Of a stretch of DNA of 64,000 nucleotides, positions 29,540 through 31,310 are shown piece after piece. The stretch comes from Podarcis gaigeae. Its lineage: Eukaryota. The notes under the pieces were generated by a model. It did no database searches. It was not told the origin of the DNA and worked only from the letters and a program-made list of their open reading frames with translations. The stretch's first letter is position 1, and every line of letters starts with the position of its first letter. Made by a program: the position numbers and the translations under genes. The stretch is from NCBI GenBank assembly GCA_964106915.2, contig OZ066922.1; one strand, 5' to 3'.

Positions 29540-31310
29540 CTTTCTTCTTCTTCTTTGGCGATCACTCATCGCTGAGTAAGATTGTCTTCCATAAACAGGG
29601 TTTTAACAATGAGTCCGTAAATGTGATGGCCTGGGACTCGGGCTCAGACTCAGAACCAGAGAAGTCTCAGTCTGCACCGGATCCTTTGCTTCAGGCATCA
29701 TCTGAACCAAGTCTGGGGCCTGATCCCGAAGAGTCCCAGTCTGCACAGGTTCCCCTGCAACAAACACCAGCTGGGCCGAGTCAGGTGCCCGAGCCTGCCC
29801 TAGCTCCAGATGGGGGGATTACCTCGTTGCCTTCAGCTGGGCCATCACTTTCAGCTGCTCCACTACAGGTTGGGCCAGGGGAGGCTGAGGCGGCCCCTGG
29901 GTCTAGTAATCCACCGACGTCTCCCGAACTGCAGAGACTAAGGTCTGAGAGAAGGAGAGACCTGAGTACTTGCAGGAGGAGTGCTCACCTTCGGGCGAAA
30001 CAGGGAGGTGAGTCGCTGGGGGATCAGGACTGGCCATTACCCTGACAAAGATAAAAGGCTGTCGGACCCCGCCCCAGGTTGCGGGAGCAACATTGCTTTA
30101 TGACAGACCCTGCCTGAGATTCTGTACCTGTCCTTGTCTGGTTTCCTGTCTCATGCCCTGCCTTGACCCTGTCAGACCGACTCCTAGTGGAACCTATGGA
30201 TTCTGGACTGGACCTGGACTGTGGTTTTTGGGTTACCCCCGGGCCCAGCACAGTAAGTGACTGTGGAGGTTAATTCTGGATCCACATGTCCTTCCACATT
30301 GGGGACATTGGTTTCCGGGCGGGAGTTGATCACGGTGTGAATTTGCCAAACGTGCCTTCCTCTTAGCATGTTTCTCCCTCGCGTCCTGTGTTTGAGTGTC
30401 TTCAAAGCCCATGACACCTTTGGTAAAGGCTGTTCTCCAACTGGAGCACTCGCTGGCCAGTGCTTCCCAGTTGTCAGTGTTTATGCTACATTATTTTGGA
30501 TTTGCCTTGAGACAGTCTTTAAACCTCTTCGGAATAGAGTAGTTGCTTTGGAAGACGATCATCAGGCATCTGCACAACATGACCAGTCCAACAAAGTTGA
30601 TGTTGATGTTGAAGAATCATTGCTTCAACACTGGTGATCTTTGCTTCTTTCAGTACACTGATATTAGTTTGTCTGTCTTCCCAAGTGATGTGTAAAATTT
30701 TTCAGAGACACCATTGATGGAATCTTTCGAGGAGTTGGAGATGGTGTTTATAAGTGGCCCATGTTTCACAAGCATATAGTAAGGTTGGTAGTACAATAGC
30801 TTTGTAAACAAGCATTTTGGTTTCCCTGCAAATGTCCCAGTCCTCAAACACTCTCCCCTTTAATCGGGAGAAAGCCGCACTCACAGAGCTCAGGCGATGC
30901 TGGATTTCAGCATCAATGTTGGCCCTTGTTGAAAGATAACTGCCTAGATAGGAGAAGTGATCAACATTTTCCAGCGTTACACCACTGAGTTGGATTTGTG
31001 GTGCTGCAGAGGGGTTATTTTGTACTTGTTGGTATAGTACTTTGGTTTTTTGGATGTTGAGTGAAAGGCCAAGCTTTCCGTAAGCTTCTGCAAAGGTATT
31101 TAGGATGGTTTGGAGGTCATCCCCTGAGCGTGCTCACACTACGTTGTCATCAGCATACTGAAGCCCTATGATGGAAGTTACAGTAACTTTATTCTTTGCT
31201 TTCAGCCTGCTCAGATTGAAGAGCTTTCCATCTGTTCGATATATGATTTCTACTCTGGTCGGGAGTTTCCCTTCGACAAAGTGTAGGATCATGGCAATGA
31301 AAATAATGCT
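29540..31310 (-). mobile_element. Decayed RTE-clade LINE (third lineage), interrupted by a solo LTR
   Basis: YRTDGKLFNLSRLKAK, QYADDNVV, TKMLVYKAIVLPTLLYACETW; (GAA)n tail at ~29540; boundaries approximate. Confidence 0.82.
29622..30252 (+). mobile_element. Solo LTR (probably Gypsy/Ty3) carrying a 140-codon ORF
   Basis: TG...CA ends with short inverted termini (TGTGATGGCC / GGCCCAGCACA). 5-bp TSD GTAAA 29617-29621 vs GTAAG 30253-30257. TATA-like GATAAAAG at ~30050. Splits the RTE element cleanly. Confidence 0.8.

Follow-up and report, generated by a model that had tools for sequence, protein, structure and literature searches.

A decayed lizard solo LTR whose U3 frame matches the integrase tail of a sister chromovirus subfamily and includes a candidate nucleosome acidic-patch motif

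The lizard elements described here have several characters in common with the Tf1/Sushi chromoviruses of fungi and vertebrates, namely the domain order PR-RT-RNaseH-IN-SH3-chromodomain, an aromatic-cage chromodomain, a self-priming site instead of a tRNA primer site (self-priming is described for this group in PMC6317226), LTR ends TG..CA and 5-bp duplications. Tf1/Sushi relatives of frog, fish and fungi end about 40–90 residues past the chromodomain motif in non-chimeric models, whereas the lizard family adds a U3-encoded tail of 117–143 aa. A targeting motif encoded in the 3′ LTR is described for plant CRM group A (PMC3059260, in the part available), and a polyprotein frame that enters the 3′ LTR is common to these elements and to two lizard groups analysed here, subfamily B and a second clade. 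The CRM elements differ in that a CR motif, for which the available part of PMC3059260 identifies no partner, replaces the chromodomain, and in that they are primed by tRNA-Met and are plant, centromeric elements. In contrast, the lizard element keeps a canonical chromodomain, adds a short HMGN-like motif and has a predicted self-priming site.

This motif, RRSARLxA (x is R, K, Q or W in relatives of the window copy), agrees with HMGN RRSARLSA at seven of eight positions, the anchor arginine included, resembles RRSSRLTS of Dsup and RRSARIAT of Dot5, and has, in common with these, a context predicted to be disordered. The full HMGN core is unmatched, because relatives reach seven of eight positions and the copy studied here reads RRSAHLRA. 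The first-pass annotation had named RRSARLSA as the acidic-patch motif of HMGN, in agreement with the accessible sections of PMC12487698, in which R26 of HMGN2, the fifth motif residue, occupies the H2A E61/D90/E92 pocket as the anchor and R367 is the anchor of Dsup. Yeast Dot5, an unrelated protein, binds the acidic patch through RRSARIAT (PMC13347269, available part). HMGN is a stand-alone small protein of the HMG14/17 family, whereas the lizard tail is part of a transposon polyprotein and has no HMGN family match, and its motif is a candidate acidic-patch anchor. Prototype foamy virus Gag and KSHV LANA, also named in the annotation, are likewise reviewed as mobile-element proteins with an arginine anchor on the acidic patch (PMC9040877), and the foamy virus anchor bears on integration-site choice in the portions available of PMC9040877 and PMC12125541. 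Their anchors differ in lying on Gag or a latency protein instead of integrase, in not being LTR-encoded and in having other sequences. The available part of the same review (PMC9040877) covers LANA, IE1 and foamy-virus Gag and does not mention retrotransposons. Our literature search turned up neither this tail nor an acidic-patch anchor on a retrotransposon integrase; a prior description is possible in subscription papers and Repbase, which lay outside its scope.

The window, a 64,000-nt stretch of Podarcis gaigeae DNA (contig OZ066922.1), contains at 29622..30252 what is, on sequence grounds, a solo LTR of a lizard Tf1/Sushi-type chromovirus (Ty3/gypsy). A search of the 1.5-Gb genome with this LTR gave 2391 first-look candidates, and thousands of related LTRs are present; the 40 candidates scored (of the 2391) were the window LTR itself and full-length copies 89–91% identical to it. 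The following features were mapped.

29617..29621, plus strand: left target-site duplication GTAAA, from the flanking letters (5-bp duplications with at most one mismatch flank 23 of 30 fetched LTR copies)
29622..30252, plus strand: solo LTR of subfamily A, beginning TG and ending CA, 631 bp (relatives 89–91% identical)
29623..30045, plus strand: U3-encoded frame of 140 codons, the homologue of the C-terminal gag-pol/integrase tail that full-length sister elements have
29656..29793, plus strand: in-frame duplication of 2 x 23 codons inside the acidic Pro/Ser-rich linker
29923..29964, plus strand: conserved basic segment PELQRLRSERRRDL, whose equivalent in the sister tail is the sole predicted helix
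29974..29997, plus strand: HMGN-like motif, here RRSAHLRA (RRSARLxA in other copies)
29986..29988, plus strand: anchor-arginine codon, decayed to CAC (His) by comparison of copies
30050..30056, plus strand: TATA-like GATAAAA, common to subfamilies A, B and C
30081..30090, plus strand: GCGGGAGCAA, predicted self-primer and transcription start, complementary to the stretch that directly follows the 5′ LTR in full-length elements
30253..30257, plus strand: right target-site duplication GTAAG, from the flanking letters

The window copy, with histidine at the anchor position, is likely a decayed and inert fossil. It sits inside an older repeat (29570–29621 and 30253–31133; a LINE-like RT fragment on the minus strand), other copies of which are without the LTR insertion, and RNA reads from such copies cross the empty site. 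Elsewhere in the window, exons of a USP38-like gene (Pfam Usp38-like_N and UCH) lie on the minus strand at 46.5–62.2 kb, the LTR being about 17 kb past the last exon and on the opposite strand, and a near-complete LINE with two long frames, which we take to be of RTE/BovB type, occupies 14.8–17.9 kb on the minus strand.

The first-pass annotation had described an uninterrupted ORF running from LTR base 2 to just before a TATA-like box, with an acidic, Pro/Ser-rich product, and both descriptions hold. The frame at 29623–30045 comprises 140 codons free of internal stops, reads ...TSPELQRLRSERRRDLSTCRRSAHLRAK and terminates (30043–30045) 5 nt upstream of GATAAAA; its net charge is −12 over residues 1–100 and +6 over residues 101–127, and proline and serine make up 31%. 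Among 30 subfamily A copies the frame was stop-free in 19, with 2–11 stops per copy in each of the other five frames, which exceeds chance expectation. In many copies a sense codon, CGA or another, stands in place of the terminal TGA of the window ORF, and their frame extends to the TAA within GATAAAA. TGC and CAC had been proposed to be CpG-decayed CGC, and the copies agree: CGC is the commonest codon at both positions and TGC and CAC are the main variants (codon 117: CGC in 17/30, TGC in 5, CAC in 5; anchor codon 122: Arg in 17/30, of which CGC in 15/30, with TGC in 7 and CAC in 6), so that the anchor arginine has been lost in 13 of the 30. RRSARL itself was found in 13 of the 30 copies and the exact RRRSARLRAK in 3; arginine stands at motif positions 1, 2 and 5 in 13/30 subfamily A copies and 14/20 sister tails. 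A Pfam search with the window peptide returned no family at E values up to 10. Pairwise differences among subfamily A copies average 9.3%, so this subfamily is older than B and seemingly survives almost only as solo LTRs.

The 23-codon tandem duplication (29656–29724 and 29725–29793) had been given with the right figures, as 12 of the 23 residues are identical and 8 of these use different codons, but it is weak as a sign of protein-level constraint. The two units share 48 of 69 nt, and the differences at codon positions 1, 2 and 3 number 5, 6 and 10; since only 10 of the 21 fall at third positions, we did not accept the duplication as evidence of selection in its own right. It was also absent from the output of the repeat finders.

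Full-length elements were found in the sister subfamily B. A search for a G-rich tract ahead of the LTR start led to a recurring polypurine tract, and the 20 places fetched were all of subfamily B, whose LTR shares about 70% identity with the window LTR where the two align. These elements are mostly 5.3–5.8 kb long, and their LTR pairs are 98–99.5% identical where both LTRs were found. Ten of the 20 have no break in the frame from the chromodomain through the polypurine tract to the LTR, which the frame enters in the phase of the window ORF, and in 9 of these 10 it continues unbroken to RRSARL; in the other 10 a stop or frameshift separates chromodomain and LTR. Two B ORFs (1370 and 1451 aa) matched Pfam gag or zinc knuckle, protease, RT, RNase H, integrase, SH3 and chromodomain, follow the order PR-RT-RNaseH-IN, and end in a 117-aa domain-free tail after the chromodomain. 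The chromodomain (PF00385, E 2.5e-14), aligned to HP1/CBX, has Y, W and Y at positions that we take to be those of the aromatic cage. The closest named protein, a UniRef entry from Podarcis muralis, is 96% identical across the whole integrase end and tail.

The proposed Pol/integrase tail, encoded by a frame that continues into the 3′ LTR, is thus seen directly in subfamily B. For subfamily A, to which the window copy belongs, we infer read-through only, because none of the genome pattern matches (sets of 0, 0, 4, 2 and 28, with solo-like flanks and no recurring tract) was an A-type 3′ LTR preceded by a polypurine tract; the grounds are the shared frame, purifying selection and one related 5′ LTR. 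The latter came from a search for an A-type 5′ LTR with a primer site, which gave seven matches, one being the 5′ end of a truncated element: an A-like LTR (77–80% identical to A copies) runs into a primer site of the same type and a gag start 76% identical to that of B, after which the element is truncated. One apparent pol match from these searches was spurious on checking. Genome matches to further families of polypurine tract and LTR starting TGT[ACT]A remained at control level (9 versus 11). The U3 frame is very probably an integrase tail, and the 140 codons are real coding sequence, though likely not a stand-alone peptide.

The comparison of dN/dS across subfamilies that the first-pass annotation had suggested gave a value well below 1. 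Real copies of A and B were compared pairwise over a DNA-only alignment of 342 sites. Net differences between A and B were 0.23, 0.22 and 0.38 at codon positions 1, 2 and 3 (permutation p=0.0004), and differences within A were 0.083, 0.079 and 0.094. In two gap-free blocks chosen by protein alignment, net dN/dS between A and B was 0.22 (bootstrap 95% 0.07–0.48; 50 codons), and four other frames gave 0.98, 1.36, 2.07 and 4.41, the antisense frame that shares third positions giving 0.42. The same count within A gave 0.59, which, with the flat positional differences, we read as the neutral baseline under transition bias. The distances from LTR start to motif in the subfamilies (268, 298 and 334) differ by multiples of 3, whereas 9 of the 11 post-insertion indels are of 1–2 nt (7 of 1 nt, 2 of 2 nt and 2 of 6 nt). 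Purifying selection between subfamilies, together with neutral decay of inserted copies, indicates that the tail was a functional protein segment in the replicating lineages and was not maintained after insertion.

A profile of 13 tails found five matches among 1.84 billion representative proteins, all of them Podarcis gene models. The same genome also contains a second, very young chromovirus clade, with LTR pairs up to 100% identical and many 1331-aa pol frames (an example is at G000:C19:12587000-12594000). Its frame reads 83–109 aa into the 3′ LTR in four of six fetched stretches, those in which both LTRs were found. The tail is again acidic and then basic, with an L[LA]CW motif in place of RRSARL, and the chromodomain match is weaker; read-through therefore does not need RRSARL. 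Related gypsy proteins of Anolis carolinensis gave no chromodomain match and have a long acidic tail with an FEGF motif, which is also present in the second lizard clade. In an RT-integrase tree (28/29 rows, with no named Sushi reference in the set), the family, the Anolis elements and the second lizard clade were joined (84/97), apart from frog and fish elements. As both lizard clades read into the LTR and the tree joins both with the Anolis elements, LTR read-through looks like a trait of a squamate clade, of which RRSARL would be one lineage's version.

Immediately inside the 5′ LTR, full-length elements carry a sequence that has no TGG start and is not a tRNA primer site; it is complementary over 10 nt to LTR positions 30081–30090, which begin 31 nt after GATAAAA. 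Self-priming is known for Tf1/Sushi elements (PMC6317226, available part). If this site marks the transcription start, the ORF lies upstream of it, in U3, and only the 3′ LTR of a full-length transcript would allow its translation. RNA reads from a sister element did not pile up at the putative start, and U3 depth was about equal to R/U5 depth; this element had low-depth internal reads from one strand in the two bulk RNA runs, and its LTR reads often entered from unrelated flanks. In four RNA runs (6–12% of each run read) of a related or the same species, which is not known to carry the window insertion, the window LTR had almost no reads.

The pattern R-[DE]-L-x-x-x-RRSARL is encoded at 2532 places in the genome, against one for a reversed control. 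The first 30 of these places fell into subfamily A (9), subfamily B (9) and a third subfamily, C (12), and all end in RRSARLxA. AlphaFold predicted the sister tail as coil apart from a helix at residues 79–93, directly followed by the motif, with a mean pLDDT of 63. A PDB profile search with the motif alignment gave E values of 0.87 or worse and no HMGN chain among the matches, and an ESM Atlas search yielded no lead (best score 0.79). Among the matches listed for C1:1–37 Mb, the density of motif-bearing LTRs over the first 14 Mb of contig C1 was about four times that at 24–36 Mb, which suggests a regional bias of insertion or retention.

We propose, with a probability of about 0.5, that the window holds a decayed solo LTR whose U3 encodes the last 117–143 residues of gag-pol, consisting of a disordered acidic linker, a basic helix and RRSARLxA, and that this motif would act as an acidic-patch anchor which, with the chromodomain, holds the integration complex on nucleosomes. 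In the proposed mechanism, a single frame would run from gag through PR-RT-RNaseH-IN-SH3-chromodomain and the polypurine tract into the 3′ LTR, as it does in subfamily B, and the shared frame and selection point to the same read-through in subfamily A. With a predicted start about 31 nt after the TATA-like box, as self-priming would imply, a solo LTR promoter could never yield a translated U3, which would be read only at the 3′ end of full-length RNA. Selection on the protein acted while the lineages replicated and ended after insertion, as the contrast between subfamilies and inserted copies indicates. By analogy with HMGN2 R26, the fifth residue of the motif may enter the H2A E61/D90/E92 pocket, and the aromatic-cage chromodomain would read methyl-lysine. 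That RRSARLxA is an arginine anchor on H2A-H2B is, by itself, about an even chance.

A rival reading is an integrase tail whose basic end is a nuclear-localisation signal or a non-specific nucleic-acid-binding segment, with an incidental HMGN match. Integrases of yeast Ty1 and Ty3 have C-terminal nuclear-localisation signals, many chromoviruses end in short, unrelated basic tails past the chromodomain, and the acidic-then-basic tail of the second lizard clade does without RRSARL. Within the family, the arginine-rich helix LQRLRxERRR is conserved as much as RRSARL. However, the exact S-A-R-L-x-A spacing, which such a signal does not need, has been kept in three subfamilies with differing flanks, and the exact 6-mer arose in 0.008% of whole-tail shuffles and in 0.15% even of trials inside the basic segment (the looser RRSxR arose in 0.6–11% overall and in 4–11% of basic-segment trials). 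We consider this reading rather unlikely; a localisation role and an anchor role are compatible. The conserved 18-mer might instead be a U3 promoter element about 60–75 nt upstream of the TATA-like box, RRSARL being merely what the pol frame happens to spell there. Its motif codons are nearly invariant as DNA in A, B and C, one DNA spelling accounts for the great majority of the 100 motif matches listed, and 1 of the 6 motif codons varies synonymously against 9 of 15 neighbouring conserved codons, in a sample that had been selected for motif presence; this near invariance keeps both a promoter role and a plain localisation signal alive as rivals. The codon difference is not significant (Fisher p=0.09), though, the surrounding frame is clearly under protein-level selection, and a chance DNA element would rarely spell a 7/8 match to the HMGN core, so that a promoter element seems to us improbable.

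The first-pass annotation had also allowed for a separate accessory peptide. A peptide of this kind, accessory or exapted by the host, would be made from solo LTRs through the ATG at LTR base 5. RefSeq XP_077791897.1 (Podarcis muralis LOC114604991) starts at the ATG of a subfamily A LTR, keeps RRSARL and continues into other sequence, and is possibly an exonised solo LTR; the RNA reads that enter sister LTRs from unrelated flanks would represent host read-through of solo copies. Against these points, inserted copies decay neutrally and many have lost the anchor arginine, the window copy among them, and the ATG and its frame lie upstream of the predicted transcription start. The window copy is moreover antisense to the USP38-like gene and almost without RNA reads. 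We therefore set the accessory peptide aside as very improbable.

Returning to the proposed acidic-patch anchor, we would suggest tentatively, and with less confidence, that an HMGN mimic evolved on a lizard chromovirus integrase by overprinting of the U3 promoter region, which would yield a bivalent nucleosome reader that combines a methyl-lysine chromodomain with an acidic-patch arginine anchor, and that squamate chromoviruses may use U3 as an interchangeable module for tails that target chromatin. It is known for few LTR retrotransposons how they select their target chromatin and stay on it, and the RRSARL tail is a short natural candidate anchor with evidence of selection. If the proposal is true, it would provide the first demonstrated case of a retrotransposon integrase that docks on the acidic patch, and more than 2500 motif-bearing LTRs would be raw material for host exons that bind it. 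Vertebrate chromoviruses, like plant CRMs, can encode the integrase end inside the LTR, and the annotation of squamate LTRs and of solo-LTR 'ORFs' therefore needs to take this reading into account.
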